NCBI GenBank assembly: GCA_028277745.1
Contig: JANQFR010000068.1
Coordinates: 110,676 to 174,675 of the forward strand
Reading direction: 5' to 3'
DNA length: 64,000 nucleotides
From: Phycisphaeraceae bacterium
GTDB taxonomy: Bacteria; Planctomycetota; Phycisphaerae; Phycisphaerales; Phycisphaeraceae
The notes under the pieces are model-generated. The model saw nothing but the letters and a program-made list of their open reading frames with translations. It was not told the origin of the DNA and ran no database searches. Positions 2,857-62,257 of the stretch are shown here, in pieces. The stretch's first letter is position 1, and each line of letters begins with the position of its first letter. A program made the position numbers and the translations under genes.

Positions 2857-3005
2857 AAAGCAGGAAAGCAGGAAATACAGAAAAGCAGGAAATGCCGAAT
2901 AGCCAGCCATCGCGGGATGTCTCAAGGGCCGACAAACGCCGCCGCATGTCGGCTCGGGCGGTCCTGCTTCTCTTCATTTCCTGCTTTCCTGTTTTCCTGC
3001 TTTTC
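2857..3005. repeat. Imperfect inverted array of AAGCAGG(A)AA octamer repeats (about 4 units on each arm, about 70 bp spacer) spanning radA 3' end and the start of the next gene
   Basis: Left arm aaagcaggaaagcaggaaatacagaaaagcaggaaatg (2857-2894); right arm ttcctgctttcctgttttcctgcttttctgcttttctgc (2967-3005) is its reverse complement. The spacer contains the candidate start codons 2892 and 2949. Confidence 0.6.
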
Positions 3006-4208
3006 TGCTTTTCTGCAGAAGCCCAGCTTCTGCAAGCAGACTGGATCGACGAGAACAACCGGCGCATCGCCGACGCCCGGCAGACGGCCGTCCGGGTGAT
3101 CGTGCTCGATGAGAAGGGCGTCGCCCAGGCCGGCGTCCCCGTGCAGATCCAGCAGATCAGCCGCGACCTGCCCATCGGCTTCACGATCGGCCGCGACGGC
3201 TTCGAGGGCCTCGACCTCGACCAGCCGGTCTGGCGCGTCTTCAACGCCGTGGCGCTCGACCGGGTGACGCGGTGGGCCATCACCCAGCCCACGCCCGACG
3301 TGCGCGAGGACCTCACGCCCGCGATGTGGATCGTCGACGAGGCCCAACGCCGCGGCATGACCGTGCGCTGGGGCGGCATCGTCTCGGCCGACCCCGCCCA
3401 AAACCCCGACTGGCTCCTGGGCCTGACCGACCGCCTGCTCGAACAACTCCTGGACCTGCACGTCGCCGAGGTGCTCGAAGACTTCGGCCCGCGCGTCGGC
3501 CAGTTCGACATCTACACCGACAACCTCAGCCACCGCTTCATCGAGGACCGCCTCGGCCACGCCATGGTGCGCCGGCTGTACGAGCGCTCGAAAGCCATCG
3601 CCCCCCACGCCGCGATGTGCATGCGCTTCAACGACTCGCTCACCGGCCAACGCCTGCCCGCGATGGTCCGGGCCGTCACCGCCATGCGCGAGGACTTCAT
3701 CCCCGCCGACCTGATCGCCATCGAGCAGCGGATCGAGGGCAAGGTTAACCGCACCCCGCTCCGCCGGGCGCTGGAATGGATCGGCCGGCTGGGCATGGGC
3801 GTGGTCCTGGTCGACCTCGAGGTCGGCGGGGGCAGCGATGCGGCCGCCGCGGTCAACCTCGAGACCCTGTTCCGCGTGGTCATGGCCGACCCCAACGTCC
3901 AGGGCGTCTGGATGGGCCCGATACACGCCGGCGACGTGACCGACCCCGCCGCGGCCCTGCTCGACGCCGACGGCAGGCCCACCGCGTTGGGTGAGTTGTT
4001 CGATCGCCTTTTCACCGAGCTGTGGCGGACCGATGAACTGCTCAAGACCGACGAACTGGGCAACGCCCAGACCCCCGTTTTCGCCGGCGCCCATCAGATC
4101 ACCGCACTGCTCCCCGACGGCCGCGCGATCGAGACCACCGTCTGGGTCCCGCGCGACGACGAGGTGCGCGTCATCATCCTCCAGCCCCTCGCGCCCGCTG
4201 CGCGTTGA
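2949..4208 (+). CDS. Secreted putative glycoside hydrolase, distant GH10-like TIM barrel with an N-terminal beta-sandwich module
   Basis: Signal peptide MSARAVLLLFISCFPVFLLFCFSAEA. The N-terminal VRVIVLDEKGVAQAGVPVQIQQ module parallels the GH10-like protein at 10760. Weak GH10-like motifs (FNAVALDRVTRW; VLVDLEV). An alternative start at 2892 would give a long charged N-region. Confidence 0.45.
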   Translation, partial: SARAVLLLFISCFPVFLLFCFSAEAQLLQADWIDENNRRIADARQTAVRVIVLDEKGVAQAGVPVQIQQISRDLPIGFTIGRDGFEGLDLDQPVWRVFNAVALDRVTRWAITQPTPDVREDLTPAMWIVDEAQRRGMTVRWGGIVSADPAQNPDWLLGLTDRLLEQLLDLHVAEVLEDFGPRVGQFDIYTDNLSHRFIEDRLGHAMVRRLYERSKAIAPHAAMCMRFNDSLTGQRLPAMVRAVTAMREDFIPADLIAIEQRIEGKVNRTPLRRALEWIGRLGMGVVLVDLEVGGGSDAAAAVNLETLFRVVMADPNVQGVWMGPIHAGDVTDPAAALLDADGRPTALGELFDRLFTELWRTDELLKTDELGNAQTPVFAGAHQITALLPDGRAIETTVWVPRDDEVRVIILQPLAPAAR

Positions 4209-10667: not shown

Positions 10668-10747
10668 AAGCCGGACCTGAGCGGAGCGAAGGTCCGGATC
10701 GAATGGGTGAAAATCATCCGGACCTTCGCTCCGCTCAGGTCCGGCTT
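10668..10747. repeat. Repeat family A: 80-bp palindromic element (two inverted 33-bp units AAGCCGGACCTGAGCGNAGCGAAGGTCCGGAT), copy 1
   Basis: Perfect inverted arms 10668-10700 and 10715-10747; each unit is itself a hairpin (CCGGACCT...AGGTCCGG). Other copies are at 12169-12202 and 29895-29975. Confidence 0.7.
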
Positions 10748-12168: not shown

Positions 12169-12240
12169 CAAGCCGGACCTGAGCGAAGCGAAGGTCCGGA
12201 TAGATTTCACCGACCGGGGCCCGCGTCCGCATGCGGGGCT
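12169..12240. repeat. Half-copy of repeat A plus palindrome D (CCGCATGCGGGGCTTA) between convergent genes
   Basis: caagccggacctgagcgaagcgaaggtccggata (12169-12202), then gtccgcatgcggggctta (12225-12242), which is shared with 51203-51226. Confidence 0.5.
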
Positions 12241-26469: not shown

Positions 26470-27369
26470 ATGCATGACGTTGTGATCATAGGGGGAAGCC
26501 ACGCGGGGCTCTCCGCCGCTCTGGTTCTCGGGCGGGCGGGCAGACGCGTTCTCGTGATCGACGGCGGCTCGCCCCGCAGCGTGCGGTCCGCTTCGGTCCA
26601 CGCGTTCCACACCCGCGATGGCGAACACAGCACCGTCGAGCTGCTCCAGATCGCGCGGGACCAGTTGGCCATGTACCCGAACGTCACACTGGAGCGGGGC
26701 GAGGTTGGTCGCGCCACGCAAGCCGACGGCGGCTTCTGCGTCGCGACCCGTGAACGCGAGCAGCTCGGCCGCATGCTCGTGCTGGCGACCGGCGTCCGGG
26801 ATGTGCTGCCCCCGATCGTCGGCCTCGATGCGTTGTGGGGCACGCTCGCGATCCGTTGCCCGTACTGCGACGCGTGGGAGCTGCGCGACCATCCCCTGGC
26901 CGTGATCGGCAATGACGAGCAGACCCTCCGCCACCTGCGCTTCGTGCGCCTCTGGTCGGAGCGTCTCACCCTGTACACGAACGGCCGCGCACTGCCGGCC
27001 GACGCCGCGGACCAACTCGCGGTGATGGGCGTCCGCGTCGTGGAGGCGCCCATCACCGAGATGGTCACCGCCGAGGGGATGGCGGAGATTGCTGCTGGCG
27101 ATCAGCGTTCGGCTTACCGGGGCGTCTTCCTCTGGCCGGTGATCGAGTTTCAGAATTCACTTGCTCAACAGCTCGGCTGCGCCGTACAGGCCTGCGGCGC
27201 CGTCGTGGTCGACCCCACGCGCCAGACCACGACCCAAGGGGTTTATGCCGTCGGCGATCTGGTTGAACCGGAAATGCATATGGTGGCGCTGGCGGCGTCA
27301 ACCGGGTTGCAGGCCGCATTCGCGATCAATACCGCGTTGTTTGAGCAGGACGACGCGAACACTCCGTGA
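26470..27369 (+). CDS. FAD/NAD(P)-binding oxidoreductase (pyridine nucleotide-disulfide oxidoreductase/TrxR-like)
   Basis: Dinucleotide-binding GxGxxG (VVIIGGSHAGLSAA), a second Rossmann-like segment, CPYCD redox motif; start at ATG 26470. Confidence 0.7.
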   Translation: MHDVVIIGGSHAGLSAALVLGRAGRRVLVIDGGSPRSVRSASVHAFHTRDGEHSTVELLQIARDQLAMYPNVTLERGEVGRATQADGGFCVATREREQLGRMLVLATGVRDVLPPIVGLDALWGTLAIRCPYCDAWELRDHPLAVIGNDEQTLRHLRFVRLWSERLTLYTNGRALPADAADQLAVMGVRVVEAPITEMVTAEGMAEIAAGDQRSAYRGVFLWPVIEFQNSLAQQLGCAVQACGAVVVDPTRQTTTQGVYAVGDLVEPEMHMVALAASTGLQAAFAINTALFEQDDANTP

Positions 27370-27412
27370 CCGCAATGGGCCGGCTGCGCCGACAACTGAT
27401 AGACTCCCCGCC

Positions 27413-28225
27413 ATGCCCGCCCGCACGCCGGTCAAGACCCTGGACGCGCAGCGATATGCGCAAACCTTCGCCGCCTTCGTCGCACGTTCGTACGAATACC
27501 CGGCCATGACCGATCGGCTGGTCGGGTTCGCCGACCAACTGCCCGAGGGGTTCGCGTGCCTCGACATCGGGGCCGGCACGGGCAAGGTCATCCGCGACTG
27601 GCTTGCGTGCGGCGGCCGGCGGCCCGAGCGCTACGCCGCCGTCGAGCCCAACCCCGCCCACGCCGCCGAGCTGCATGAGGCCGTTGCGTCGCTCGGGATT
27701 GACGCACGCGTCGACGAGGCGCCGTTCGATGCCGCATACCCGATCCCCGGCCGATTCGACCTCGTGCTGTTTTCCCACTCGCTCTATTGGCTGGCGGATC
27801 CCGTCGGCTGCGTGCGTCACGCCTGCGACGCGCTGACCCCCGCCGGCCGCGTCGTCGCCTTCCTCCAGGGCCCGTTCGGCATCCACCCGCTCTACCGCCT
27901 GTTCAACCCCCGCTTCGACCGCGACCACCCCCCCGGCCCCCACCACGGCTTCTCCAGCGCCGAACTCGTCGTTGGCCTCCGTGACGCCGGCCTCCGACCC
28001 GCTGTCCATTTCGACCCCACCCCCCTCGACCTCACCGGCCTGTTCGACCCCGGCCAGGAACGCCAACGCGACGAGTACCTGTCCTTCTGCCTCCAGATCG
28101 AGTTCGCCCAGCTGCCCGAGCCCCTCAAGTCCGACGTCGTCGCCTACCTCCACGCCGCCTGCGTCCAAGACAACGGCCGCCTGCTGTGGTACGAGCCTAA
28201 CGCCACGGTGGTGGTGGAGCGGTGA
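27413..28225 (+). CDS. Class I SAM-dependent methyltransferase
   Basis: Motif I LDIGAGTGK, motif post-I AVEPN, motif II/III DLVLFSHSLYWL; start at ATG 27413. Confidence 0.7.
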   Translation: MPARTPVKTLDAQRYAQTFAAFVARSYEYPAMTDRLVGFADQLPEGFACLDIGAGTGKVIRDWLACGGRRPERYAAVEPNPAHAAELHEAVASLGIDARVDEAPFDAAYPIPGRFDLVLFSHSLYWLADPVGCVRHACDALTPAGRVVAFLQGPFGIHPLYRLFNPRFDRDHPPGPHHGFSSAELVVGLRDAGLRPAVHFDPTPLDLTGLFDPGQERQRDEYLSFCLQIEFAQLPEPLKSDVVAYLHAACVQDNGRLLWYEPNATVVVER

Positions 28226-28261
28226 TGGGAATCGCTCCCCGGACGCCTGCCGCCTCACGTC

Positions 28262-28948
28262 ATGATGTTTAGGGATTGGCCGAAGGGTATACTCAACCGC
28301 ATGGAGTCGCCGGGTCCTCAAGCCAATGAAAGTCAGCGCCGCCCCAGGCCTCGCCCGGTTTACGGCTGGTGCGCGGTTGCGGCGTCGATGATCGCTTTGT
28401 TGGCCTTGGTGGTTGGGCCCTGGCTGGTGGATTGGCTGACCCCTCCCCCTCCCCCGCCGTCCCAGGTGACCCGGCATCTTTCCTTGAAGGATCTGGCTTC
28501 AAGCCTGATCGACAAGGTGCGCAACCAGGGAGAAGCGGCGGAAGATCCGGAGTCTCCGCTTGACGCCGAAGAACCGGACCCCGTATCGATCGACCTCGAC
28601 GTGAACGACCAGAGCAGCGGCCAGTGGGTGCGCTTCTCTTTCTCAACGGGGCCAACGCCAAGCATGACGGTCATCACGCCCCCGAAGCCGGCCTGGCTCG
28701 TCGCCCTGGAAAAGGCCCTGGTCGGGATGATCCTCGGTGGCGGGACGCTCGCATGGGCGTTGGGGGTGGTGTCGCAATTCCGTGGCGAGTTCTGGGTCTA
28801 CGGCGCGGCCGCCCAGTTCACCGGAACACTGACGGTGACGCTTTTCCTGCTCGCGATGTTCATCGCCGCGTTGATGATGCTGGTTGTGCTGATCGTTGTC
28901 GCGGCGGTGATCGCCTTGTTGTTAGGCGTGGACCTGCCTTCCATCTGA
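28262..28948 (+). CDS. Hypothetical membrane protein
   Basis: N-terminal TM helix, polyproline stretch (PPPPPPS), acidic region and three C-terminal TM helices; start uncertain. Confidence 0.4.
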   Translation: MMFRDWPKGILNRMESPGPQANESQRRPRPRPVYGWCAVAASMIALLALVVGPWLVDWLTPPPPPPSQVTRHLSLKDLASSLIDKVRNQGEAAEDPESPLDAEEPDPVSIDLDVNDQSSGQWVRFSFSTGPTPSMTVITPPKPAWLVALEKALVGMILGGGTLAWALGVVSQFRGEFWVYGAAAQFTGTLTVTLFLLAMFIAALMMLVVLIVVAAVIALLLGVDLPSI

Positions 28949-28968: not shown

Positions 28969-29481
28969 TTAAAGACGGAGCCGCATCACCGCTTCGCCGT
29001 CCTCGTATTCGCCCGTGAGTTCAAACCCGTTTTTTTCGTAGAACCCTTGCGGGCCGCCCTCAGCCTGGACCACACTGGTCAGCAACTCGGTCGCGCCCGG
29101 CCGGGTCCTGACGTGCTCGATCAACAGCGCCAGCGCCCGCTGGCCATAACCCATCCCCTGATAGCGGGCGTCGATCATAAAACGCCATAAATAGTACTCC
29201 GGCGGTTCCGGCTGGTCCGCCAGCATCACGAAGCCGACCGGCGTCTCGTCGGCGTACACCGCCCGGAACCACGCGTGCTCCGAGAAATAGGCCTGCGCGA
29301 TGGACACCGCGTTCGGCGCCACGAACTTTGTCTGCTCGTCACGGACCGACAGCCCGCAGATCGTGCGCACGCTGTCCCCGGTCACCTCACGGAGCGCCAC
29401 TTCATCACGGCCGGATGGCGTCGCCTGGGACTCTGTCATCGATCTCCTCAAATCTCGGGTTGCCCCGTGTTGTTCCATCAA
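28969..29481 (-). CDS. GNAT family N-acetyltransferase
   Basis: YQGMGYGQRALALLIEHV...GFYEKNGF acetyl-CoA binding motifs; the start may be at the internal Met (MTESQ). Confidence 0.7.
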   Translation of the reverse strand: MMEQHGATRDLRRSMTESQATPSGRDEVALREVTGDSVRTICGLSVRDEQTKFVAPNAVSIAQAYFSEHAWFRAVYADETPVGFVMLADQPEPPEYYLWRFMIDARYQGMGYGQRALALLIEHVRTRPGATELLTSVVQAEGGPQGFYEKNGFELTGEYEDGEAVMRLRL

Positions 29482-29831
29482 CCGTCATCGGCGGTGGCGC
29501 CGTCTTCATTGGGGGCGATGCGCTCGAAGGTTTCAAAGATCGATGGGTCGTCATCCCAGGCATGGAGTTGGCCGTCGGCCTGCCGCAGCCACAGCGCCGT
29601 GGGGTCGGCCTCGGCTCCGCTCAACACCCGCCAGACCTCCCCCGCGGCATAGACCTTTCCCGTCGGATTCCCGTCTTCATCCAACCTCGGCAGGTCATTC
29701 CTGAGGCGGACCAGGTCTCCCGCACGAAGCCCGCATGAATACTGCTGAATGTTGAATTCGGTGACCGGCACGTAGCGATCTCCGCCCGATTCATCGCCGA
29801 TGCGAAGGATGTACTCGCGCTCCTCGCTCAT
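29478..29831 (-). CDS. Hypothetical protein, 4-nt overlap (ATGA) with the downstream GNAT gene
   Basis: 117 aa with coding-like composition, translationally coupled. Confidence 0.45.
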   Translation of the reverse strand: MSEEREYILRIGDESGGDRYVPVTEFNIQQYSCGLRAGDLVRLRNDLPRLDEDGNPTGKVYAAGEVWRVLSGAEADPTALWLRQADGQLHAWDDDPSIFETFERIAPNEDGATADDG

Positions 29832-29894: not shown

Positions 29895-29975
29895 AAAGCC
29901 GGACCTGAGCGCAGCGAAGGTCCGGATGAGTTGTTTCGACCGTATCCGGACCTTCGCTGCGCTCAGGTCCGGCTT
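29895..29975. repeat. Repeat family A, copy 3 (full palindromic element)
   Basis: aaagccggacctgagcgcagcgaaggtccggat (29895-29927) and its inverted partner atccggaccttcgctgcgctcaggtccggctt (29944-29975). Confidence 0.7.
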
Positions 29976-30022
29976 GATTCAAACAGATAGCCTTGATGTA
30001 TTGAGAAGCAAGCCTGACGGAA

Positions 30023-30114
30023 TGGCTTGACATCATACGATCGAAAAACCCAGCACGCAGGGCGTTTGCGCTGCGCTTGTTCTTTGACAATCTGATATCT
30101 GTGCTTAACCGGCC
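30023..30114. repeat. Repeat family E: about 90-bp direct repeat, copy 1 (left boundary of a low-GC segment)
   Basis: ggcttgacatcatacgatcgaaaaacc...gtttgcgctgcgcttgttctttgacaatctgatatctgtgcttaaccggcc; about 85% identical to 32500-32592; contains two TTGACA hexamers. Confidence 0.6.
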
Positions 30115-30461
30115 GGGCCGCGGAGTGTCGCGGGCAGTTCAAACCAGCCGTCACGACCCGGCTCAAACGGCAGCACCTGTTCAACGGCGTCGATATTGAT
30201 CGGCCCATAGATGTGCGGAAAGAGCTGTTCGCCGCCTTCAAGATTTTCGTAACGGATCTCGGAATCCACTTTCTCGCTGTCGATGCACAACAGCACCAAT
30301 CCGGTTTGCCCCTTGAAAAGGAAGTTGGCGATCGAGATCACCTGGTCGGGTTTCGAGCAATGCAGGAAACCGTCCGAGTGAAGGCTCGGAGCCCGATACC
30401 GGCCTGAGGCCTGCGACGCTTCCCAGGCTTCGCGTGAGGTGATGTGCAGGATGGTGCTCAT
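30105..30461 (-). CDS. DUF952 domain protein
   Basis: LHCSKPDQV...QLFPHIYGPINID is characteristic of DUF952; about 56% GC against a 68% background. Confidence 0.7.
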   Translation of the reverse strand: MSTILHITSREAWEASQASGRYRAPSLHSDGFLHCSKPDQVISIANFLFKGQTGLVLLCIDSEKVDSEIRYENLEGGEQLFPHIYGPINIDAVEQVLPFEPGRDGWFELPATLRGPAG

Positions 30462-30652
30462 GGCTGGATCACGTCAATGGGGCTCAGGCGTCGCGATGCA
30501 CGGCGTCGGGGCGTCTGTCCCGGCTCGGACCAGCCCGCCGGGCTGACCATCCGCGCCCGGCCGTTCGAGATGTTGCCGCAGATGATCCGCTGTGAGCATG
30601 AACGCGAATTCTACTGAAAATAAAACCACAAGATTGGGCAGCCCACCAGAGA

Positions 30653-31114
30653 GTGGATGGCGGCACGATACAGGTGGTTGACCCGGATGGCGTTACAACC
30701 AGCACCGGCGCTGTCAAAACGACTGATACCCAAAACAGCACATTGGTGACGCAGCGGGTGAGTTGGCAGTTAACATATCAAGATCAAAATCTGCCCTGGC
30801 GCGGCACCATCAAGGAAGAGATCACCGAATTGTCTATCAGCCAAAATGTGGATGACCCCAAGGGCGATACAATCGGCGCCGCTTTTACGGACGGCGTGTC
30901 TTGGGAGACAGACCCAGATGGGTCGTTTGATGAAACTCACGTTTCAAATTTTCCCGACCCTCTCCCAAATGCAAATAAGTATCACTCTGTAGGCAATCAC
31001 CAAAAGTTTAAGAACATGGAGGATGGGGGCAACGGGTTCGGCGCCACCTTCGAAACATATCACTGGGTGGATGATGCGGGCGCCGGCGGCGCTGACCATA
31101 AAAAGAAGGAGTGA
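30653..31114 (+). CDS. Hypothetical protein (low-GC islet), weak GTG start
   Basis: 153-aa ORF at about 50% GC, Asp/Thr-rich, AT-rich upstream region; coupled (GTGA overlap) to the next ORF. Confidence 0.35.
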   Translation: MDGGTIQVVDPDGVTTSTGAVKTTDTQNSTLVTQRVSWQLTYQDQNLPWRGTIKEEITELSISQNVDDPKGDTIGAAFTDGVSWETDPDGSFDETHVSNFPDPLPNANKYHSVGNHQKFKNMEDGGNGFGATFETYHWVDDAGAGGADHKKKE

Positions 31115-32262
31115 CCGACGTGCCGGCGCCTATCGGTCGATGGCGAATCGTGTTGGGGGTCTTGGTGATCCCCGCGTTTGTCTTTACGGCGTATTATGGG
31201 TTTTCATGGGTCACGCACAAAGAGCGGACCCAAGCCAATCCGTCCCATCCTGCTCCTGCTGGCTCCATGTCAATTGATAGAGAGCCGCGGTCCGGTCCGG
31301 CGGATCCAAGACAGGAACATACGGGGCGGCGCCCGACGCCAAGCTCGGTCACGGCATCTGATTTGGCCGAGGCCAGGCGCGACGAGGCGCCAAAGAAGGA
31401 TCCGTCAGATTTAGAGCGGCTGCCAGAATCATGGTCTTGGAATTTACTGGGCCCGTCTGGGGAAGTGCTTGAGGCGGATACCTGGGAAGAGGCGTTCGCG
31501 GCTATCGATCATTTTGCTTCGAGCGAAGAAGCGACCCAACTTGAGGTGCTTAGAAAATATCAGAGCCTTCTTGATCGCGGGGACCTGCCCCGGGAAGTTG
31601 AAGCCAATGTGCGTCTGCGCATGGGTGCTCATCTTATAGCGCAATACAACGCAGCCAAGGGCGAAGAATCCCGTGATGAAGAGGCCATCCGTTGGTATCG
31701 CGATCTGTTGACACGGTTCAACGGCTGGGAAAATCACTCATCCGTCATGCGCGCAAGGATCCACCTGGGCAATCTATACGACCGTAACAACACCGGAGGT
31801 CCCGCGGCTTCGAAGTCGTTATACCAACGTGTGCTGGATGTTCCTGCCGAAGAGATCGTTTTTGATCATCCAGAGAAACAGCGGTTTAATGTCAATCATA
31901 TCGAAGCCGCTAAAGCGCCGCGGGCCGGGCGGGCGGCCGCTTTTTTGAGCCCGGAACAATCCGAGTTTTGGGATCAGCGTGATCAGGAGCATCAAAGGGA
32001 TCTCTGGGGGCAGCGCATGTATGAGATTGACTGGATCCGCCAAGGCGCGGCTAAATCATTAGCTTATCTTTATATCGAACCTGGGTTAGGGTTCGTCACG
32101 CGTGAGCGTTTGCAGGGGCTTAAAGACTCGCGCCCCGATGACCCTGTGTTTCAGCAAGCCGTCCAGAAGGTGTACGATTGGTACGACGAAGTTAATTCCA
32201 AGCGTCAGACACCCAACTGGGACAGCCTTGAAGAAGATCGGGTCATTGCCACCTTTCAATAA
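31111..32262 (+). CDS. Hypothetical membrane-anchored protein (low-GC islet)
   Basis: N-terminal TM helix (IVLGVLVIPAFVFTAYYGFSWV), then a 340-aa helical soluble domain; GTG start overlapping the upstream stop. Confidence 0.5.
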   Translation: MTDVPAPIGRWRIVLGVLVIPAFVFTAYYGFSWVTHKERTQANPSHPAPAGSMSIDREPRSGPADPRQEHTGRRPTPSSVTASDLAEARRDEAPKKDPSDLERLPESWSWNLLGPSGEVLEADTWEEAFAAIDHFASSEEATQLEVLRKYQSLLDRGDLPREVEANVRLRMGAHLIAQYNAAKGEESRDEEAIRWYRDLLTRFNGWENHSSVMRARIHLGNLYDRNNTGGPAASKSLYQRVLDVPAEEIVFDHPEKQRFNVNHIEAAKAPRAGRAAAFLSPEQSEFWDQRDQEHQRDLWGQRMYEIDWIRQGAAKSLAYLYIEPGLGFVTRERLQGLKDSRPDDPVFQQAVQKVYDWYDEVNSKRQTPNWDSLEEDRVIATFQ

Positions 32263-32499
32263 TGTGCGGTCACCAAGGCCCCTTGCAGAGATCGGCAAGA
32301 CGATCGTCTTGTGACGCTGCTCAGCTGTCCCGTTGAACTGCTTCAGGCGAGAACGCGGGCAGGCAGACCGCTACGTACTCGGCGCCGCCGGGTCGAGCGT
32401 CTACGCCGACTCGGCCCGGCCAGCCCATTGTCCTCCGCCGCCGCCGTTCCTGGTCAACCGACATTCGGGGCTCGCTGCTGTACCCGACGGGAGGCAAGT

Positions 32500-32592
32500 G
32501 GGCTTGACATAATGCAATCAAAAACCTAACATATAGGAGGTTTGCGTTACGCTTGTTCTTTGACAATCCGATATCTGTTGTAAAGCCGGCCG
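32500..32592. repeat. Repeat family E, copy 2 (right boundary of the low-GC segment)
   Basis: ggcttgacataatgcaatcaaaaacctaacatataggaggtttgcgttacgcttgttctttgacaatccgatatctgttgtaaagccggcc; TTGACA-17nt-TAACAT promoter-like spacing and an AGGAGG motif. Confidence 0.6.
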
Positions 32593-32890
32593 CGGGGCGA
32601 GCAACGGGCCGGTAAGGACGGGAATCCGGGGGCCGAGAATCCGGGGTCCGGCGATCCGGGGGTCGGATCGGCGGTTTCCGCGCCTTCCGGCTTCCCGCTC
32701 CCTCCGGCCGGTCCCGTTTGACGCCGCGATTGGCGGGCCGGTCTTGACGGCCTGTGGAGACGGAGCCGGGCGCCCCGCGGTTGATCTTCGCCGGCCTGGG
32801 CGGTTGTGTGATCGCCCGTCGTCCGCGCCGCAGCCGTTCATTCCGCCAAGACCTGACGCGTAGTGAGGCCCACCCCCTTCCGGGGTCGGG

Positions 32891-33982
32891 TCACCGCACG
32901 ATCCGCGCCCCGCCGCCGCCGGCGACGTGTTCCAGCTCCTTGAGCGTGATCTGGCTGGTGTCGCCTCGGGTGGTCTGGAGCAGCGCGCCGTGGGCGGTGC
33001 CCAGGTTGACGGCGGTCTGGGGGTCCTGGCCGGTGAGAAAGGCGTAGGCGAACCCGGAGGCGAACCCGTCGCCGCCGCCGACGCGGTCTTCGAGGATCAG
33101 GCGTTCGAAGTCGGGGCCCTTGTAGAACGTGTCGGTCTCGGACCAGTAGAGGATGGCCGACCAGTTGTTCTCGCTGGCGCTGAGGACCTCGCGGAGGGTG
33201 GTGCCGATGACCTTGAGGTTGGGGTAGTCCTTGGCGACCTGGCGGACCATGTTTTTGTAATGCTCGATGGGCAGTTCTTTGAGGTTTTCGTCGGTCCCTT
33301 CGATCTCGTAGCCGAGGACCTTCTGGAAGTCCTCTTCGTTGCCGATGAGGCAGTCGATGTAAGGGACCAGGGGCTTGGTGGTGGCGATGGCCTCCTGGGA
33401 GGACCAGAGCTTGGAGCGGAAGTTGAGGTCGTAGGAGACGACGGTCCCGGCCTCGTGGGCGGCCTTGAGGGCCTCGGCGGCGACCTGGCGGGTGGTTTCG
33501 GAGAGGCAGGTGAAGATCCCGCCGGAGTGGAGCCATCGGACGCCGCGTTTGTCGAAGAGCAGGTCCCAGTCGACGTCGCCGGGCTTCATTTTGGAGGTGG
33601 CGGAGTGGCCGCGGTCGTAGAGGGTGACGGCGGCGCGGGGCCCGACGCCGACCTCGGTGAAGTTGAGGCCCATGCGGGCCTCGCGGCCGACGCCGTCGTA
33701 GGGCAGGGTGACGACGTGCTGGGTGTCCATGCCGCCGGAGTGGGCGTGGTTGAGCACGAGCCGGCCGACGGGGTTGTCGACGACGCCGCCGACCCAGCCG
33801 GTGTTGAGGCCCAGGCGGGAGAGGGCGTAGGCGACGTTGTACTCGCCGCCGCCGACGTGGACTTCGAGCTGGTGGGCGAACTCGACCCGGCCGTGGCCGG
33901 GGGGCGAGAGCCGGATCATGCATTCGCCGAGGGAGACGAGGTCGAGTTCACACTCACTGTGGTCAAGCAGGTTGAGCGCCAT
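32891..33982 (-). CDS. PfkB family sugar kinase (2-dehydro-3-deoxygluconokinase-like)
   Basis: Ribokinase-fold motifs GGGEYNVAYALSRLG near the N-terminus and the anion-hole/ATP motif DRVGGGDGFASGFAYAF near the C-terminus; start at ATG 33982. Confidence 0.8.
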   Translation of the reverse strand: MALNLLDHSECELDLVSLGECMIRLSPPGHGRVEFAHQLEVHVGGGEYNVAYALSRLGLNTGWVGGVVDNPVGRLVLNHAHSGGMDTQHVVTLPYDGVGREARMGLNFTEVGVGPRAAVTLYDRGHSATSKMKPGDVDWDLLFDKRGVRWLHSGGIFTCLSETTRQVAAEALKAAHEAGTVVSYDLNFRSKLWSSQEAIATTKPLVPYIDCLIGNEEDFQKVLGYEIEGTDENLKELPIEHYKNMVRQVAKDYPNLKVIGTTLREVLSASENNWSAILYWSETDTFYKGPDFERLILEDRVGGGDGFASGFAYAFLTGQDPQTAVNLGTAHGALLQTTRGDTSQITLKELEHVAGGGGARIVR

Positions 33983-36933: not shown

Positions 36934-37204
36934 GCCCGGGTTCGAGAGCGTCATTCATTACGACTGGCAGTACCCGCGCCTTCTCAGGTAGGCCGGCGGG
37001 TCGCTCGCCGACCTCGAACCGCACGTGATCGAACCGGCCGACTCGCCGCGGCTTAGGGCCGCGAGGATTTTCGCCATCCGTGACCTCCAGCAACAGGAAA
37101 GCCACATCAAGACACACTGCCGTAAAATGCGCCAGCAACTCTGATATAGAAGTGAGATACGCCGTGGAGGCACGTCAATTGACAAGGTTTTTGCAAGGTA
37201 AAAC

Positions 37205-38338
37205 ATGATTTTATGTGTCTTTATCATTATCACAATGGCTGCGGTAAGTGACGTGTCGAATCCAAATAAAGAAGTGGCTCAAACTATGTTAGTTGTCGCA
37301 AAGGCATGGCAGGCAAACCAGAATCATCTCCAGACATGGACAGGCGATGTTGATCTTTCGCATTCTCTTAGTGATCAAGGCGGGGCAATTGTTGATAACA
37401 AAGGAAAAATTGATTTTGCTTATGATTCCATGACGAGGAATTATTACTCCAAATGGAATCGGGGGGAGGCAAAAGATCAGGCGACTTTCAGATATGCTGA
37501 AATGCGCAAGGATGGAAAATTTTTTACTTATTCAGATTTAAGCGGGAGCAGGGTGTTAACGATTGATGTGGAAAAGCAAAGTAACTTTAATCGACACGAT
37601 CGGCGTTTTGTGCCCCAGGAATTGTTTTCTCCAAATGGATTAGATGTCTACGGATTATTTACGAAGCTATCGACGCAACCTGATGTAGAGCAATTTTCAT
37701 CAGTGGAAAAGATCGGTGAGATTGTAACCGTGACGATCGAGGATGATGACGTTCTAAACATATATGAGTTTGACGTCGGGAAAGGAAATTTGATTTCGTA
37801 TAGAGGTATTTCAAAGGACAAAAGTGCCGATGAAAAATGGACATGGGAATATACGAATATTTCGGGTGTTTGGGTGCCAACGAAGATCATTCACTCGGTC
37901 ACTGCTGCAGGTTCGAGTGGGCCGGTAAAAATTGATCGAGTCACCACGATAGTCAAGCAGACAGTGAATCAGCCGCTGCCTCCGGATGCGTTTGCAATTG
38001 ATCATTTGGGCGTTAAGGCTGGCGACTTCGTTAAGGATCATATATTGAACTTTGTGTACGAATACTCGGGAGAGGATGCGATTGCGAAGGTCACAGACAT
38101 GCCGGAAGATCCATCATATTTTGTGGCGGACGCAGAGATGCCTGTTGACATAGAGGCAAATTCTGATCTTTCTGAGCCGTCGCCTTCTGTTAGATCTAAC
38201 GAGAGAACCGCAAATAGCAATGGTGAATATCGCTACGCTGTAGCAGGTGCGGTAAGCGTATTAGTTGTGATGCTTATTATCTTCGCCTTGCGGTTTTATC
38301 GAAGCCGTAGCGGATGGCCAAAGAATCCTAAGATATGA
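37205..38338 (+). CDS. Hypothetical membrane-anchored protein encoded in a 42% GC islet
   Basis: N-terminal anchor MILCVFIIITMAAV, C-terminal TM AVAGAVSVLVVMLIIFAL; codon usage is AT-rich (Lys/Asn/Ile-rich), unlike any neighbour. Confidence 0.55.
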   Translation: MILCVFIIITMAAVSDVSNPNKEVAQTMLVVAKAWQANQNHLQTWTGDVDLSHSLSDQGGAIVDNKGKIDFAYDSMTRNYYSKWNRGEAKDQATFRYAEMRKDGKFFTYSDLSGSRVLTIDVEKQSNFNRHDRRFVPQELFSPNGLDVYGLFTKLSTQPDVEQFSSVEKIGEIVTVTIEDDDVLNIYEFDVGKGNLISYRGISKDKSADEKWTWEYTNISGVWVPTKIIHSVTAAGSSGPVKIDRVTTIVKQTVNQPLPPDAFAIDHLGVKAGDFVKDHILNFVYEYSGEDAIAKVTDMPEDPSYFVADAEMPVDIEANSDLSEPSPSVRSNERTANSNGEYRYAVAGAVSVLVVMLIIFALRFYRSRSGWPKNPKI

Positions 38339-51272: not shown

Positions 51273-53117
51273 CTACTGATGCGGTGTTGATTCGAGTTCC
51301 CGCAGTTCACGGCGCCACGCTTCGCGCTGCGCTTCGTCGATGCCGGGCTCCGGCAATAGAGACCGTCTGGTGCAGTTCACCAGGGCCTGAAGCGTCTGAT
51401 ATCGCCGTGCGGCGCCGATGTCTGCGGGCAGCAGGTCGTCGACGATCGTTTTGAGTTCATCTTCCCGCAAAGGTCTGTTTTTGATGGTTGATGCGGCTCG
51501 CAGCCGCGAACGCAACGCGGCGTATCCCGCAGCGGAATATCCTTCTGTCATCACACCGATCCGTTCCACCGCCTCGGGGCTCAACGTGTCGGTGGATTGA
51601 CCGATCGCCCATTTCACAAACTCGAGCCGATCCTCGCCTTCCGGGTCCAACACCGGGATGATCAGGTCGCCGACACGTCCCGGGCGGCGGATATCGGGGC
51701 TCAGCCGCTCGATGCGTGCGGTCATCAGCAGCCAGACCACCTTCCCCCGTAGTTTCGGGTCGCTCATCATCTGCTGCACCTTGCCGGTCAGCCGTCGTTC
51801 CGTCGCGTGGGCGTCCGGCCCAACCCCGCCGAACTGCGTGTCCGCCTCGTCGACAAACAGGATCACTTTGTCGAGCGCTTCAAGCATGCGTCGTAGTCGT
51901 TCAAAGATGACATCGGTCTGGCCGAAATACTGGCTGCGGATGTTTTTCAGCACCAGCACGGGCAGTCCGAGCGATCCGGCGACGGCTTCGAAGATGAACG
52001 TTTTCCCGGCGCCGATCGGCCCCGCGACGGCGGCGCCCGGCAACGCGGATTCATCTTCCGCTTTGACCCGTGGAATGAATTCGTCTTGGAGAAAGCGTTT
52101 CAGCCCGCTGTAGCCCACGACATCCTGCAACGTGTGTGCCGGTTTCTTGAACTCCACCACACCGGGCCCGACCTGGGACGTGATGAAAGTCTCGACATGC
52201 TCGATGGCGGCGTCGGCCGTGACCGCTTTGTTTGTATGCGCCGCCTCCATCAGCACCTGGCGTAACGCATGGATCGATAGGCCCGCGGTGGATTTGGCGA
52301 GTTCTTCGATACTGCATGAAAGCGATGGTTGGGGGCGTTGATGACGCAGGAACCAGTCGACGTAATGCCGGCGGGTCGCCGCATCAGGCGATGGCGCTTC
52401 CACGGTTAACACCTGCGGCAGCCGCGTAATCCGAGGATGCACCTGGCTCTCGGATTCGGCCAGAAGCACCACGCTGTCTTCGCCGTTGCAGAAAGCCGGA
52501 TCGCTGAACCAGTCCTGCATCACCGACACCCGGTGGCGGTCCGCTACCGGCAGCCGCGTGATCTCTCCGTCTCCCGCGGGGACGAGCATGTCGGCCGCTT
52601 CGATAAAAATCATCAGCCGAAAGCGTTTGGCGCTGCGGGAGCAGAGCGTCACCTGACGAAGAAACTCCAGCGCGACCGTGGGCCGGCCGATCGCGTCACG
52701 CAACGACTCATCGAAGCTGTTCTCGGCCTCGGCTTTCCGGCTCGCCGCGGCTTGATCGCTTAAGCCTCTCAGGACCAGGGTGTCAAGTTCTACGCCCGTT
52801 TTCCAAGCCACCCAGGCATGACGGACCTTTTGGGCGTCTCCGTCGTCAATAAACCGTATGGGGCCATTGAGTTCATAGACAATCCGGACAAGGTTGTCGA
52901 CGTTGCAGCGGGCGATCAAATAGTGCAGCAAGGGCTGATAGGAGCCGTCAAAGGGATCGGCCCCGCCGTCGTCATCTTCGAGTTGTGAGGTCCGGTTGGG
53001 CGTGTAGAAGAGGTCGTGCACGTCGCCGGCAACAAGCAGACTCCTTGATTGGCCGCTGTTGAATACGCGGGCCAATCGTCTGAAGAAAGCGTAGCTTGGG
53101 GCCGGGGGAGTGCTCAT
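51273..53117 (-). CDS. Classic-clade AAA ATPase with a 330-aa unknown N-terminal domain
   Basis: Walker A GPIGAGKT, Walker B ILFVDEAD, second region of homology LLMTARIERLSPDIRRPGRVGDLIIPVLDPE; start 3 nt after the PspA-like stop. Confidence 0.8.
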   Translation of the reverse strand: MSTPPAPSYAFFRRLARVFNSGQSRSLLVAGDVHDLFYTPNRTSQLEDDDGGADPFDGSYQPLLHYLIARCNVDNLVRIVYELNGPIRFIDDGDAQKVRHAWVAWKTGVELDTLVLRGLSDQAAASRKAEAENSFDESLRDAIGRPTVALEFLRQVTLCSRSAKRFRLMIFIEAADMLVPAGDGEITRLPVADRHRVSVMQDWFSDPAFCNGEDSVVLLAESESQVHPRITRLPQVLTVEAPSPDAATRRHYVDWFLRHQRPQPSLSCSIEELAKSTAGLSIHALRQVLMEAAHTNKAVTADAAIEHVETFITSQVGPGVVEFKKPAHTLQDVVGYSGLKRFLQDEFIPRVKAEDESALPGAAVAGPIGAGKTFIFEAVAGSLGLPVLVLKNIRSQYFGQTDVIFERLRRMLEALDKVILFVDEADTQFGGVGPDAHATERRLTGKVQQMMSDPKLRGKVVWLLMTARIERLSPDIRRPGRVGDLIIPVLDPEGEDRLEFVKWAIGQSTDTLSPEAVERIGVMTEGYSAAGYAALRSRLRAASTIKNRPLREDELKTIVDDLLPADIGAARRYQTLQALVNCTRRSLLPEPGIDEAQREAWRRELRELESTPHQ

Positions 53118-53120
53118 GCA

Positions 53121-53945
53121 TCATTCCGGCAGTTTCGCGCCGCCCCCATCAGGGGAATCGCCGTTTTCTCGATCCGATTCCCCCGCCAGTCCTATCAACC
53201 GATCAAACTCATCGTTCGCGAGGCTCTTCTGTGCGTAGTCCAGGAACTCCGCTTCCTGCGCCTTGGTGTCAGAGCCGGCCAGTTCTTTGCTGACGCGCGC
53301 CTTGGCCTTCATCTCATCACGCAATTGGCGCATATCCGCCAATTCGCGGGATGTACGGTCCTGGCTGATGCCCGCCAACATGTCGTTGATCTCTTGCTCC
53401 TCCTTGGCGGTGATCATCTCCGCGACCGCGGTCGCCTGTTCTTCTCGCAATGTCTCAATGTCCTGAAGCATCTGCTGGAGTTGAATCTTGTGGCCCTTGA
53501 TGGATTCGTCCATCTCGGTGACTTCCTGCTCAAGTTCTACGATTCGATTGCCTTTCTCTTCGATCTTGGCGGTGAATCCATTGAAAGCCACCAGGCATTT
53601 CTGGTAATCTTCATTGGATTTGATCGTCTCCATGCCAACCCCCGACGTCTTGAGTTCGCCAATGACGGTCCGGGCTTTCGCCGCCGCCCCTTCTTTCAAT
53701 TGTTCGAGCCGGTTGACTTCATCGGTCTCCGCCTTGATTTTGCCCATCTTGTTTTCGTGTTGAACGATGAGCCTGGCGATGGCGTCTTTGAATTGCTGGA
53801 TGCTCTTGCGTTTTTCCTCAATAACGTTGTCGTAGGTTGCGTTGACGACGTGCGGGTTTGTGCTGAGCGTACGTCTGGCGGCGTCGATCCGGCCGGTGAC
53901 CATGTAGCCGAGAGCTCTGAAATATCGACTTACAGCTTTAAACAT
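53121..53945 (-). CDS. PspA/IM30 family protein (ESCRT-III superfamily, phage-shock/Vipp1-like)
   Basis: PspA-like N-terminal amphipathic segment MFKAVSRYFRALGYMVTGRIDAARRTLSTNP, then about 230 aa of heptad-repeat coiled coil with an acidic tail; start at ATG 53945. Confidence 0.6.
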   Translation of the reverse strand: MFKAVSRYFRALGYMVTGRIDAARRTLSTNPHVVNATYDNVIEEKRKSIQQFKDAIARLIVQHENKMGKIKAETDEVNRLEQLKEGAAAKARTVIGELKTSGVGMETIKSNEDYQKCLVAFNGFTAKIEEKGNRIVELEQEVTEMDESIKGHKIQLQQMLQDIETLREEQATAVAEMITAKEEQEINDMLAGISQDRTSRELADMRQLRDEMKAKARVSKELAGSDTKAQEAEFLDYAQKSLANDEFDRLIGLAGESDRENGDSPDGGGAKLPE

Positions 53946-53989
53946 GTTGGGCTCCTTTACCGTGATCCTAAATCCCCGAGCCGGATTTG

Positions 53990-56900
53990 TCACTCTTCGG
54001 GCGATCGGCTTCGTTCAAGCTTGGCGATCATCGTGTCATACTTGGTGACCATATCCTGGAGAGTTGCGCCAAGCTGTTTGAGCTGCCCGTCTTGATCAGC
54101 GGTGATCCGTGTCAGGGGTTCAAGCCAGCCTTTCATGAGGTTGAACTGTTCTTTCATGACATAAAGAAATGTTGACGGCACTTTATTGACGACCCGGATC
54201 TCATGCGGCGGGCTTTCTTGACCGGATTTGGGCGGTGGGACGGGGCGGCTTGCCGCCGCGGCGCGGATCGCATCGATTGTTTCTTCATCGAGTTTCGCCT
54301 CGACCACGCGTGAGGCGTCAATCGCTTCCCCGATCGATGCGAGGGCGGTGTTGAGCCTTGTGACCTGTTCCATGAGCGGAACGAGTTCTGTCTGATCTTT
54401 AGCGGATAGTCCTGTGCTGATCGCCTGATGGATCTCGTCAAGCCCCTCGTTGAACGACGCAAGTTGTACAAGCACTTGCGCCGTTCGGTCGTCGCCGTCG
54501 ATCCCGGCCAAATGGTTGTTTCGGCGAAATGTCTTTTTGATTTCTTCCCATCGGCCTTGTTCCTGATCGTTGATGATGCCGATCAATTCCTTGAATTTGA
54601 GGAGGTTCGCCTCCGCGCCGGTGGTCAGCGTTTGGGCGTCTTGTTCGTAGCTGGACAGGATCAGGGTCTGGAGCTCATCATCGTTCATGACGGACGATAC
54701 TTTCTCAGCAATCCGATTCATATTGCGATACGAACCCTGTAACCCAAAAGCCGGTTCAGTTCGATATTTGGTTTCCATGCCCGCCGAACGAATGTATTCC
54801 TGATTAACCGCCAGAATTACGTCACGCACACGCATGAGCTTGCGCATCACACCGACCATTTCATTGATTTCGTCAGATGAATAATTGCCTTCAAAATCGA
54901 TGTCATCGCGAGAGTTTGTTTCGGCGATTTTGATGATGCTATAGACGTCTTCCTGACTTCGGCTGGCGAGTTGGTTCAATGCAGGGTTGCTGGTCAGCGC
55001 ATTTTCCAAGTAGCTCATCACAAATGCGTCACGGTGGTCGCCGATGATATCGCCGAGGTTGTAGGTGTCGGCCCGATTGGCAAGCATATCGGGGATGTGA
55101 AATTTCTCTCCGGATTCGGTGTATGGGTTGCCCGCCATGACGACGGCGACTTTGCGGCCGCGGAAATCATACGTTCTCGGCCTGCCTTTATAGACCCCTT
55201 CGATCTTCCGTTGCGCATCGCAGAGGCTGATGAATTTCTGAAGAAATTCACTGCTGCAATGCTGGATGTCATCAACGTAGATCATAACGTTGTCGCCCAT
55301 CTCGAAAGCTAGATTGAGTTTGTTTAACTCATCCCGGGCGGCGGCATTGGAGGCTTCCTGAGGGTCGAGCGATGTCACGGAGTGTCCGATCGCGGGGCCG
55401 TTGATTTTCATGAAAATCACCCCCAGTCGATTGGCGATGTACTCCATGAGCGTGGTTTTTCCATACCCCGGCGGCGAGATGAGCAGCAGCATGCCCATCC
55501 GGTCGGTGCGGGTGTTTTCGCCTGCAGAACCCATCTGTTTGGCGAGGTTGTCGCCGATGAGCGGGAGAAAAACCTTGTCGATCAGCTTGTTTCGGACAAA
55601 CGAGGTCAGCACGCGAGGCTTGAACTCGTCGAGCCTCATCTCCTCACGAGCCTGCTCGGCGAGCATGCGTTTCCTGTGGGTGTATTGTTCAAAAGCCGGC
55701 GCCTGTAGCGTTACAAACCGATCAAGTCGATTTGTGAACTCGTTGTAATTTAATTCCAAAACACCGTCGATAATGCGTTGGTGTGAACCGGTCAGATTCT
55801 CAATGGTTCGGGCGACGCTGGCCTGTACAATGCGGGAATGATCGAACGGTTTATCGAGGAGCATGAGCGCGGCTTCACTGAGATAGCCTTCATGCTTGGA
55901 CGGATCGATTTCATTGGTTTCAAGAAAAGCACGGAGCCAATCACAAGCAAGTAAAAACTGCGTAACCGGTTGATCAGCGACGTTATCAAGTGAACGTTGG
56001 AACTTCTGAACGGCGCGGAATGTTTTTAGCCGACCCAGGAACGCATCGTACAGCGCGGCGGCTTCCGGACTGGCGACGAAACGGTTGTTTCCTGTTGTCA
56101 ATTCATGAAACAGATAGACCCCAGCGTCTTTGGTTTTTGCAGGATTAAACAGTTGGTGAGTGTCATTGAAAGCGGTGATATCATGGCGGATATCGTCGAT
56201 GTAACGGCCTTGTTCGTCATTCTCAGGAAAATAACCTGAGATCGCGCCGTAGCCGCATAGCCTCAACGTCATCAAGCGCTTGTCATCGTCTTCAGGACGG
56301 GTCCGCCAATAGAGGCCGGCCATGGCTCGTGATTCACTGGGGTACCGCAGCAGGCCGATACTTCCGTCTAACTCCATTAAGGCTTTGAGAATTTTGGAGC
56401 TGTCGTGGTCGTGAACGCCTTTAATATACCCTTCACTGTAGCGCGAACTCATGAACTTCTGAGTGTGCGCAAGCAGTGCGTTGTCATCAAGATCCGCCAA
56501 ATGGACAGCGTTGCTGTCGATTGACATCAGGTAGGCGAGATATTCGCTTCGATAGACATCAGGATTCTCAGATACGATCTCTTGTGTCCAGATGCTGTGA
56601 TCAGAGTTGAGCGCCTCATCTTCGATGGGCTCGAAGAACCGTGTCCCGCTGATGTGAAGATTCATTCTGTCATCACGGAGCACCATCGTGAGGTCCACCG
56701 CTTGCGTATTAACGCTAAATACATGTTTGCCGAAGCGGATGGTGTTAGGTCCATCGACCATCAACTCCTGACGGTCTTTGAGTTGCCGTACGGCATCCTC
56801 CCGGATGGTTTTGATCTGCGAGTGAATATCATCGACTTTGACGGTGTCTTCAAGATCGGAGAGCTCATCAATAAGGTCCCGGAGTTTTTCAACCATCAAG

Positions 56901-59296: not shown

Positions 59297-59339
59297 GCAA
59301 ATCTAGTATGAAAAAAACTGGTTCTGGTCCGGGAATAAA

Positions 59340-61442: not shown

Positions 61443-61460
61443 TGAAATAACCTCCGGGTT

Positions 61461-62120
61461 TCAAAAACCCCTGATGTAATAGACGTTCCGCGTATCGTCC
61501 TCGGATACGATGACGGCTTCGTCGCCTTTTTTTAAGGTTGATTTGGAATCGCTGGTCCGAGCGTTGAGCAGCAGCGGGGCGCCGTCGGTGTCGACTTCGA
61601 CCTGACCGCGGCGATGGTCGACCGTCAGAGAAACCACGCGGCACCGAGAGCCCACGATATGGATCATTGCCTCGGCTTCTTCCTGGTCCTTGATCTTCTT
61701 GTACAAGATCTTGGCCGGATGCGTGAGGATTTTGGTCACAAAAACAGCTCCGACGATCATGAGCGGCAGGGCGATGAGTTGCGTTAGCACCGCGAGGCTG
61801 CCCGCGATCAGGTAAGTCCCGACGCTGATCGTCCACAGCGTCAGGACAAACACGCTCAGTAGGATCGTCACCGGCACGTAGCCGATGTTGAGGAACCGCA
61901 TCATCGAAACCCCGACCGACGCGTCGCCGATCGACGCGTCGATATCGACGTCGGCGTCTACATCCACGTCCACGTCGGTGTCCACGTCAAAATCGAAGTC
62001 GAGGGACTCGAGGTCGAGGGCGCCGAGGATGACGAACAGCCAATAGATCACGCACAGGCCGAGGATGACGGTCAGCGTCAGGTTGACGGGTGCAAGGCAG
62101 GCTTCGATGAACTCGGTCAT
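61461..62120 (-). CDS. YqiJ/NfeD-like membrane protein with C-terminal OB-fold
   Basis: Two to three TM helices, an acidic DxD repeat loop (DFDFDVDTDVDVDVDADVDID), C-terminal beta-barrel-like VGSRCRVVSLTVDHRRGQVEVDTDGAPLLLNARTSDSKSTLKKGDEAVIVSEDDTRNVYYI; ATG at 62120, with a possible GTG at 62144. Confidence 0.6.
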   Translation of the reverse strand: MTEFIEACLAPVNLTLTVILGLCVIYWLFVILGALDLESLDFDFDVDTDVDVDVDADVDIDASIGDASVGVSMMRFLNIGYVPVTILLSVFVLTLWTISVGTYLIAGSLAVLTQLIALPLMIVGAVFVTKILTHPAKILYKKIKDQEEAEAMIHIVGSRCRVVSLTVDHRRGQVEVDTDGAPLLLNARTSDSKSTLKKGDEAVIVSEDDTRNVYYIRGF

Positions 62121-62257
62121 GGCGTTTGGCCCCCGATGGGTCACGCCAAGGATAGCGGCTTCCGAGGTGGCGTGGGTGGGAATCGGGCCCGGCCTTTCAA
62201 CGAAATTGGGACACCGAACAATCTGGTAACAGTCGGGGGAGTCGGTAGACTGTGGCG

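Follow-up and report, generated by a model that had tools for sequence, protein, structure and literature searches.

Two Direct Copies of an AT-rich Intergenic Element Bracket a Low-GC Gene Segment in a Phycisphaeraceae Bacterium and May Mark a Site of DNA Insertion

A 64,000-nucleotide stretch of contig JANQFR010000068.1 from a Phycisphaeraceae bacterium (assembly GCA_028277745.1), hereafter the window, contains two copies of a short, non-coding, AT-rich element that we call R. The copies, R1 and R2, lie 2.48 kb apart in direct orientation and bracket a low-GC segment with three genes, namely a DUF952 gene and the hypothetical genes orf153 and orf383. Our preferred interpretation, to which we give a probability of about 0.4, is that R1 and R2 are attL/attR-like junction copies of one pre-existing intergenic element, formed when foreign DNA integrated there. 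The direct orientation, the unrelated flanks and the presence of only two copies in 64 kb speak for such a recombination footprint, as do the pattern of a shared core with heterologous arms, the GC-to-AT skew between the copies and the atypical composition of the enclosed genes. The feature has the look of a scar or a local duplication of the ordinary kind that DNA insertion leaves, with no sign of a new class of RNA or mobile element.

Alignment of R1 with R2 gave an identity of 82.3%, with 14 of the 79 aligned columns differing (one 1-nt indel included), and BLAST scored the match at E = 1e-16. The first-pass annotation of this DNA had described two copies of ∼90 bp in the same orientation with ∼85% identity; the number and orientation of the copies stand, and the length and identity were slightly generous. 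Patterns for the core of R matched twice in the window against an expectation of 0.00–0.03. No third copy, even a diverged one, was detected in the window by a two-copy nhmmer profile or by patterns with up to 3 mismatches, and R is the longest of all non-coding direct repeats found there. The same two types of search detected no copy of R in nine related loci. Local alignments of the sequences that flank R1 and R2 scored below the shuffle means on both sides, showing that the repeat is sharply bounded. R1 lies directly past the DUF952 stop codon (30105–30107, minus strand) but duplicates no coding sequence, and R2 is an AT-rich patch in non-coding DNA of 67–74% GC between orf383 and a convergent kinase gene. 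A longer degenerate duplication next to R2 was rejected since the flank alignments fell below those of shuffles, and a DUF952 pseudogene in this position was rejected since tblastn gave no matches. A Logan assembly contig from run SRR20820739 (L077) is 100% identical to the window over 29947–33713, which covers both copies and all junctions and rules out an assembly artefact. Neither chance nor artefact can account for the pair.

The divergence between the two copies is both uneven and directional. The first 10 nt of R (GGCTTGACAT) and the last 29 nt (CGCTTGTTCTTTGACAATCYGATATCTGT) together carry 1 difference in 39 columns, whereas 13 of the 40 columns in the middle differ (Fisher p = 0.0007, with the boundaries picked post hoc). 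Ten of the 12 compositional changes run from G/C in R1 to A/T in R2, and two run the opposite way. Nevertheless, all 11 G/C sites of the 29-nt block survive, for which P is ∼3e-4 even allowing for the GC-to-AT bias. In R1 this block reads CGCTTGTTCTTTGACAATCTGATATCTGT and contains the second TTGACA hexamer together with an imperfect 6-6-6 palindrome, GCTTGT-TCTTTG-ACAATC, that was read directly from the sequence. The 29-nt block is a candidate site for crossover or for the binding of a protein. R1 and R2 are perfectly identical over 19+9 nt, the longest tract being 19 nt. R1 faces the host flank, and the variable arm of R2 faces the cargo.

The bracketed segment is foreign in composition. Its GC content is 56.3%, whereas the left flank has 67.0% and the right flank 68.6%, the mean of the window being 64%. 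The G+C fraction at third codon positions (GC3) is 0.59 in orf153, 0.58 in orf383 and 0.71 in the DUF952 gene. The corresponding values are 0.93 for the kinase gene, 0.80 for a GNAT acetyltransferase gene and 0.75 for orf117 in the left flank, and most genes of the window lie at 0.85–0.95. The pair orf153–orf383 (54.8% GC) is by composition the clearly foreign part, and the DUF952 gene takes an intermediate place.

The same gene pair is mobile between genomic contexts. The first-pass annotation had described coupled hypothetical genes, one of them membrane-anchored, and both points hold: orf153 and orf383 overlap or abut at 31111–31114, and the N-terminal hydrophobic helix of the orf383 product is also present in its homologues. 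The real start of orf383 is likely GTG 31120, since AAGGAG is found 8 nt before it. Among 1.8 billion cluster representatives orf153 has 11 homologues, and among 5.8 billion clusters orf383 has a single detectable homologue (P0122, ∼35–36% identity). The last ∼60 residues of the orf383 product (PGLG.VTRERLQ.LKD.RPDDPVF..AVQ.VYDWYD.VNS.RQTPNWDSLEED) are ∼90% identical to P0122, the rest being far more divergent. On an AT-rich contig of 46% GC (L079, module at 212–2382) the gene next in line after an orf153 homologue of 42% identity is a homologue of orf383 (E = 2e-36). On two further contigs (L075 and L076; module at 4681–5919 in L075) an orf383 homologue follows a 46-amino acid open reading frame (ORF) resembling the orf153 C terminus, with an MFS transporter gene and a ferredoxin gene on either side. 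The module thus occurs in high-GC and AT-rich genomes and in quite different contexts, and no DNA-level similarity between the loci was detected. As judged from these homologues, orf153–orf383 is a real, conserved and extremely rare two-gene module.

The function of the module was approached through profile and structure comparisons. Searches of orf153 and orf383 against Pfam returned nothing, no Pfam domain was found in the orf153 homologues scanned or in P0122, and no viral relatives of orf383 were found. The enclosed genes gave no meaningful match to PHROGs, NCBIfam or PADLOC. The AlphaFold model of the orf153 product (pLDDT 79) is an 8-strand β-sandwich for which Foldseek gave generic β-sandwiches only, with no significant neighbour in the PDB. 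The model of the orf383 product (pLDDT 64) gave weak Foldseek matches to TPR proteins in the PDB (E ∼0.02–0.1).

The third enclosed gene was correctly assigned to DUF952 in the first-pass annotation, a family that has been given an ADP-ribosyltransferase/Tpt1-like fold (PMC8120803). Its closest homologues are only 66–68% identical and come from mixed phyla, compared with 86–87% for relatives of the adjacent kinase, suggesting that the DUF952 gene is itself accessory in this genome. This contrast is a further point in favour of a footprint, along with the unrelated contexts of orf153–orf383, the L077 junctions and the low synteny of the locus. With regard to synteny, the neighbours of the kinase gene differ in all four related genomes compared (five loci: L007, L008, L080/L081 and L082; kinase 85–87% identical), and so the locus is poorly syntenic and gene order at this depth is very fluid. 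No R-like DNA was found at these five kinase loci.

Genes for mobility are absent, as had been noted in the first-pass annotation. No recombinase or transposase domain was detected in the three genes of the segment (Pfam, PHROGs, NCBIfam and PADLOC) or in 15 further ORFs between 20.9 and 39.9 kb (Pfam), a scan outside which the ORFs at 36958–37233 and 27326–28477 lie. The coordinates of R and of the features around it are collected in Table 1.

Table 1. Features of the repeat-bracketed locus (positions in the window)
Feature	Position	Strand	Remarks
R1 (repeat copy 1)	30024–30102, up to ∼30107	+	79 nt, 49% GC
R2 (repeat copy 2)	32501–32578, up to ∼32583	+	78 nt, 38.5% GC
Near-identical block of R1	30074–30102	+	1 mismatch to 32550–32578
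Near-identical block of R2	32550–32578	+	partner of 30074–30102
Hairpin in the variable middle of R1	30051–30073		A-run upstream, T-rich run downstream
σ70-type promoter match, TTGACA-17-TAACAT	32504–32532	+	R2 only, 10/12 consensus positions
DUF952 gene	30105–30461	-	118 amino acids; Pfam E = 3e-31
orf153	30653–31114	+	rare uncharacterised family, predicted 8-strand β-sandwich
orf383	31111–32262	+	N-terminal membrane helix, disordered linker, TPR-like α-solenoid (predicted)
Non-coding spacer inside the bracket	32263–32500		238 nt, 67% GC, host-like, no codon-position signal
Tandem repeat	32622–32662		15-nt unit x2.7 (GAATCCGGGGGCCGA), within the spacer (74% GC) that separates R2 from the kinase stop
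PfkB-family sugar kinase gene, right flank	32891–33982	-	annotated as 2-dehydro-3-deoxygluconokinase in relatives
Palindromic repeat A	29896–29975		perfect 32-nt arms, 16-nt loop, 48 nt left of R1
orf117, left flank	29478–29831	-	hypothetical protein; overlaps GNAT gene
GNAT acetyltransferase gene	28969–29481	as kinase, DUF952 and orf117	overlaps orf117

How such an arrangement might have arisen can be outlined as follows. An AT-rich intergenic element of ∼80 bp would have been present beforehand between the kinase gene and orf117, and foreign DNA would have recombined into it by a single crossover, leaving hybrid, attL/attR-like copies at the two junctions. The crossover could have been the work of the host's homologous recombination machinery, acting at a short patch of homology, or of a recombinase acting in trans. 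The site of exchange or homogenisation would lie in the outer blocks, and in the 29-nt block in particular, or these blocks would be held by functional constraint. The 40-nt middle would differ because one arm is of recipient type and the other of donor type, or decayed. R1, which is GC-richer and has kept a hairpin predicted to be able to terminate the DUF952 transcript, would be the recipient-type arm; R2 would be the other, AT-shifted arm, in which TAACAT and AGGAGG arose incidentally. The content is probably nested, with an older, partly ameliorated DUF952 insertion joined later by orf153–orf383. This order is suggested by the graded GC3 values and would explain how the repeats had time to diverge to 82%. 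The product would probably be an islet without a recombinase that is now fixed.

This scheme has counterparts among known systems. Campbell-type single-crossover integration likewise leaves exactly two direct copies of a patch with hybrid junctions and needs no recombinase encoded by the element, although R has only 19+9 nt of perfect identity at 82% overall, and no donor molecule is known. Islands flanked by att sites, including degenerate ones that lack an integrase, are similar in that direct repeats of tens of base pairs bound atypical accessory genes in poorly syntenic surroundings, the repeats sharing an identical core and diverging on one side. The segment resembles them in having direct repeats at both ends and an atypical composition inside. 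It differs from them in having no recombinase gene and no tRNA, tmRNA or conserved gene-end target; in its mismatched boundaries; and in its size of only 2.4 kb and a cargo of no known function.

Several observations weigh against an insertion footprint. No integrase, transposase or tRNA target was found; specifically, ARAGORN detected no tRNA or tmRNA in the window, and Rfam likewise none. The longest tract of perfect identity, at 19 nt, is short for RecA-type exchange. The boundaries of the low-GC island do not coincide with the repeats. The first-pass annotation was right about a low-GC segment, but not about its exact bracketing: the island occupies only orf153–orf383, the anomaly breaks off sharply where orf383 ends, 238 nt short of R2, and the intervening spacer is host-like (Table 1). 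To the left, by contrast, the anomaly fades gradually past R1, where GC3 is still lowered. At the loci of the orf153–orf383 homologues there is no R-like sequence and there are no comparable flanking repeats. Of the two findings that had been named in advance as telling against the first-pass reading, the first was thus made, in that the pair occurs in related genomes without the repeats, and the second, a uniform GC profile, was not. The copy number of R is established for the 64-kb window. We infer the insertion event itself, together with the crossover, the origins of the arms and the order of arrival, from the patterns set out above. Finally, selection on a functional element explains the uneven conservation of R equally well.

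This last point leads to the chief rival, which we regard as nearly as likely as the footprint, namely that R has a function, in cis-regulation or as a small RNA, and is present in two neighbouring intergenic regions, the low-GC genes between them being a coincidence. Possible forms of such an element are a promoter plus operator, a bidirectional terminator or 3′-untranslated region module, and a site for a binding protein made up of the repeated TTGACA(A/T)TC. As in a conserved element, the two blocks with TTGACA have hardly changed and the middle has drifted, and the two hexamers of each copy, reported in the first-pass annotation, make up 4 of the 6 intergenic TTGACA sequences of the whole window. 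Both copies also lie downstream of minus-strand genes, R2 at 312 nt past the kinase stop; if orf153–orf383 are subtracted, they occupy successive intergenic regions of the co-directional genes for the kinase, DUF952, orf117 and GNAT.

The promoter signals fit this rival in part. A duplicated promoter had been proposed in the first-pass annotation from TTGACA-17-TAACAT and AGGAGG in R2, and both motifs are indeed present, in R2 only. The match in R2 to a σ70-type promoter is a good one (Table 1), but R1 has no −10 element at all, and the R2 promoter points into 312 nt of 74% GC spacer, beyond which the convergent kinase gene would be entered from its 3′ end; the promoter has no ORF or terminator ahead of it. 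AGGAGG lies 3′ of TAACAT with no start codon at a usable distance. The TAACAT promoter and AGGAGG are built from exactly those positions that have shifted to A/T in R2, and the region holds 2 σ70-type sites against 1.3 expected. The 312-nt spacer between R2 and the kinase gene has no codon signal, and its fold is not above that of shuffles (z = −0.15).

Signals for a terminator or a structured RNA are similarly divided. The R1 hairpin, with its A-run and T-rich run, was flagged as terminator-like on both strands in a consensus scan and lies on the minus strand ∼30 nt past the DUF952 stop. The region contains 7 terminator-like sites compared with 3.7±2.2 expected. R2, in which C>T and G>A changes have degraded the equivalent stretch, was not flagged. 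The hairpin energy of R1 is −13.5 kcal/mol on the plus strand and −14.2 kcal/mol on the minus strand, and that of the R2 stretch is −4.4 to −4.9 kcal/mol. None of four 101-nt folds was convincingly above shuffles, the best being R1 on the minus strand (z = −2.06), with R2 at z = −0.15 and +0.07. In two hand-identified stem pairs, 30051/30073 and 30053/30071, the changes from one copy to the other are compensatory (C-G to T-A, G-C to A-T), which counts in favour of the rival. A conserved terminator hairpin was nevertheless rejected, as these pairs were drawn by hand from two sequences with the stem chosen post hoc and are unsupported by the folding energies. No stable structure conserved between R1 and R2 was found. 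The resemblance to bidirectional intrinsic terminators lies, for R1, in a GC hairpin set between an A-run and a T-rich run just past a stop codon, and for R2 in a position between convergent genes. R differs from such terminators in that it is least conserved in its hairpin, of which R2 retains almost nothing, and in that the conserved blocks lie outside the hairpin.

The small-RNA variant proposed in the first-pass annotation is not supported. Rfam 15 gave no match at gathering score in the window and nothing over R at E ≤ 10, no structure shared by the two copies was detected, and neither the hairpin of R1 nor that of R2 (−13.5 versus −4.4 kcal/mol) beats shuffles. Small ORFs within R (MSKNKR... 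on the minus strand and MFFDN... on the plus strand) are not conserved between the copies beyond what DNA identity imposes and were discarded. The absence of R downstream of the kinase gene in the four related genomes, and from scans of genomes, metagenomes and viruses, likewise argues against a cis-acting element. That said, a cis-element and an insertion footprint are compatible, in that a conserved functional element could have been the crossover site.

A distinctly less likely explanation is that R belongs to a dispersed family of short repeats of this organism (REP, miniature inverted-repeat transposable element (MITE) or Correia-like), two members of which happen to lie in a recombination-prone variable region. 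The genome is rich in short intergenic repeats. Specifically, palindromic repeat A, which the first-pass annotation correctly placed just outside the left boundary, has arms (AAGCCGGACCTGAGCG.AGCGAAGGTCCGGAT) that are perfect or near-perfect over 32 nt and occurs three times in the window, all intergenic, as two full copies (29896–29975 and 10668–10747) and a single arm (12170–12201). One arm has a 93.5% match at 5668–5698 of L008, from a different Phycisphaerae genome of 5.5 Mb, and the palindrome A family is therefore common to several genera. Contig L077 breaks inside palindrome A, as a multi-copy repeat would lead one to expect. In addition, R2 is a sharply bounded patch of 38% GC in DNA of 67–74% GC, as expected of an inserted element.

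Searches of sequence collections gave this idea no relatives of R. The 18–19-mers of the R core had 6, 66 and 0 matches in genome_contigs (185,579 representative genomes), metagenome_contigs (from the Joint Genome Institute) and viral_contigs, respectively, all of which proved to be unrelated on extension, and BLAST of R against plasmids and phages found nothing. The two known copies of R were themselves not recovered, and so the source genome lies outside the scanned collections and these null results are silent on its own copy number, a point in favour of a dispersed family. The window nevertheless has two copies only, a mere 2.5 kb apart in 64 kb. A MITE or other element derived from an insertion sequence was rejected on the basis of this copy number and of the lack of terminal inverted repeats and of a target-site duplication. 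Correia elements of Neisseria, the REP/BIME elements of enterobacteria and ERIC sequences are short intergenic elements with promoters or terminators. R is like them in being short, AT-rich and sharply bounded, in having promoter-like hexamers and a hairpin, in lying at gene ends, and in having a true palindromic repeat family beside it in the same genome. It is unlike them in not being palindromic, in lacking terminal inverted repeats and target duplications, and in forming a pair with no detected family.

Two bolder possibilities have between them only a slim chance of being correct. R may be the site of an integrase-less cassette system in Phycisphaerae, in which a recombinase of the host, or one acting in trans, would exchange modules such as the DUF952 gene or orf153–orf383 at a conserved core of ∼30 bp. 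Or R may be a new planctomycete non-coding regulatory element, with the 29-nt block as a binding or seed sequence.

Very improbable is a dedicated site-specific system of a known type, that is, an integron attC site or the dif-like Xer sites of an integrase-less module (IMEX or pdif). It would account for an integrase-less module between directly repeated sites, for the imperfect palindrome GCTTGT-N6-ACAATC in the conserved block and for the end of R1, GCTTAAC, which fits RYYYAAC. However, neither orientation offers a paired RYYYAAC...GTTRRRY. An attC site was rejected because the sole RYYYAAC (GCTTAAC, 30101–30107) sits at the wrong end, cannot be paired with any GTTRRRY inside 140 nt and reads TGTAAAG in R2, and because no single-strand hairpin is kept between the copies. 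The R palindrome has a 6-6-6 layout, and when its arms are extended to the 11 nt of dif sites they match at 6 of 11 positions only. In addition, three genes of mixed orientation are enclosed, this is the single such pair of sites, and no intI-like gene is present among the scanned ORFs of 20.9–39.9 kb.

Of the genes that flank the segment, the one for the kinase has, after a 100% match on an NCBI contig, next-best relatives of 82–87% identity named Phycisphaeraceae, Phycisphaerales or Planctomycetota, a result that assigns the organism to Phycisphaerae. In one related genome (L080) a hairpin and T7 make up a textbook intrinsic terminator behind the kinase gene, where the window has only a GC hairpin that lacks a T-run. 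The orf117 product gave a single weak match to NCBIfam, far below the cutoff.

Elsewhere in the window there are further tracts of unusual composition. An islet at 37205–38338 on the plus strand has 41–45% GC in DNA of 68% GC, a stronger anomaly than the R segment. It contains a single 377-amino acid ORF with a C-terminal hydrophobic segment, and a TTGACA lies just upstream at 37179. The ORF has no Pfam or PADLOC match and no similarity to orf383, and no long direct repeats flank the islet. A 9-kb block at 53000–62000 has 51–55% GC and minus-strand ORFs at 53121–53993, 53990–59296, 59340–61442 and 61461–62144. The GC3 of its 1768-amino acid ORF is 0.62, with neighbours at 0.62–0.79, and the block is probably a larger horizontally acquired region. 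A short sequence is present at 2854–2893 and 2970–3013 in inverted orientation and has an 86–92% match to C/T-rich intergenic DNA at 1540–1584 of L075, the contig that bears an orf383 homologue. It may represent a second repeat family common to these Phycisphaerae-like genomes.

If the two copies of R are the footprint of an insertion, the segment between them would be another small islet of horizontally acquired genes at a poorly syntenic place in a Phycisphaerae genome, a result that would aid annotation and imply no new mechanism. A by-product of the analysis is the pair orf153–orf383, which is predicted to encode a β-sandwich protein and a membrane-anchored TPR-like protein and which moves between distantly related genomes.

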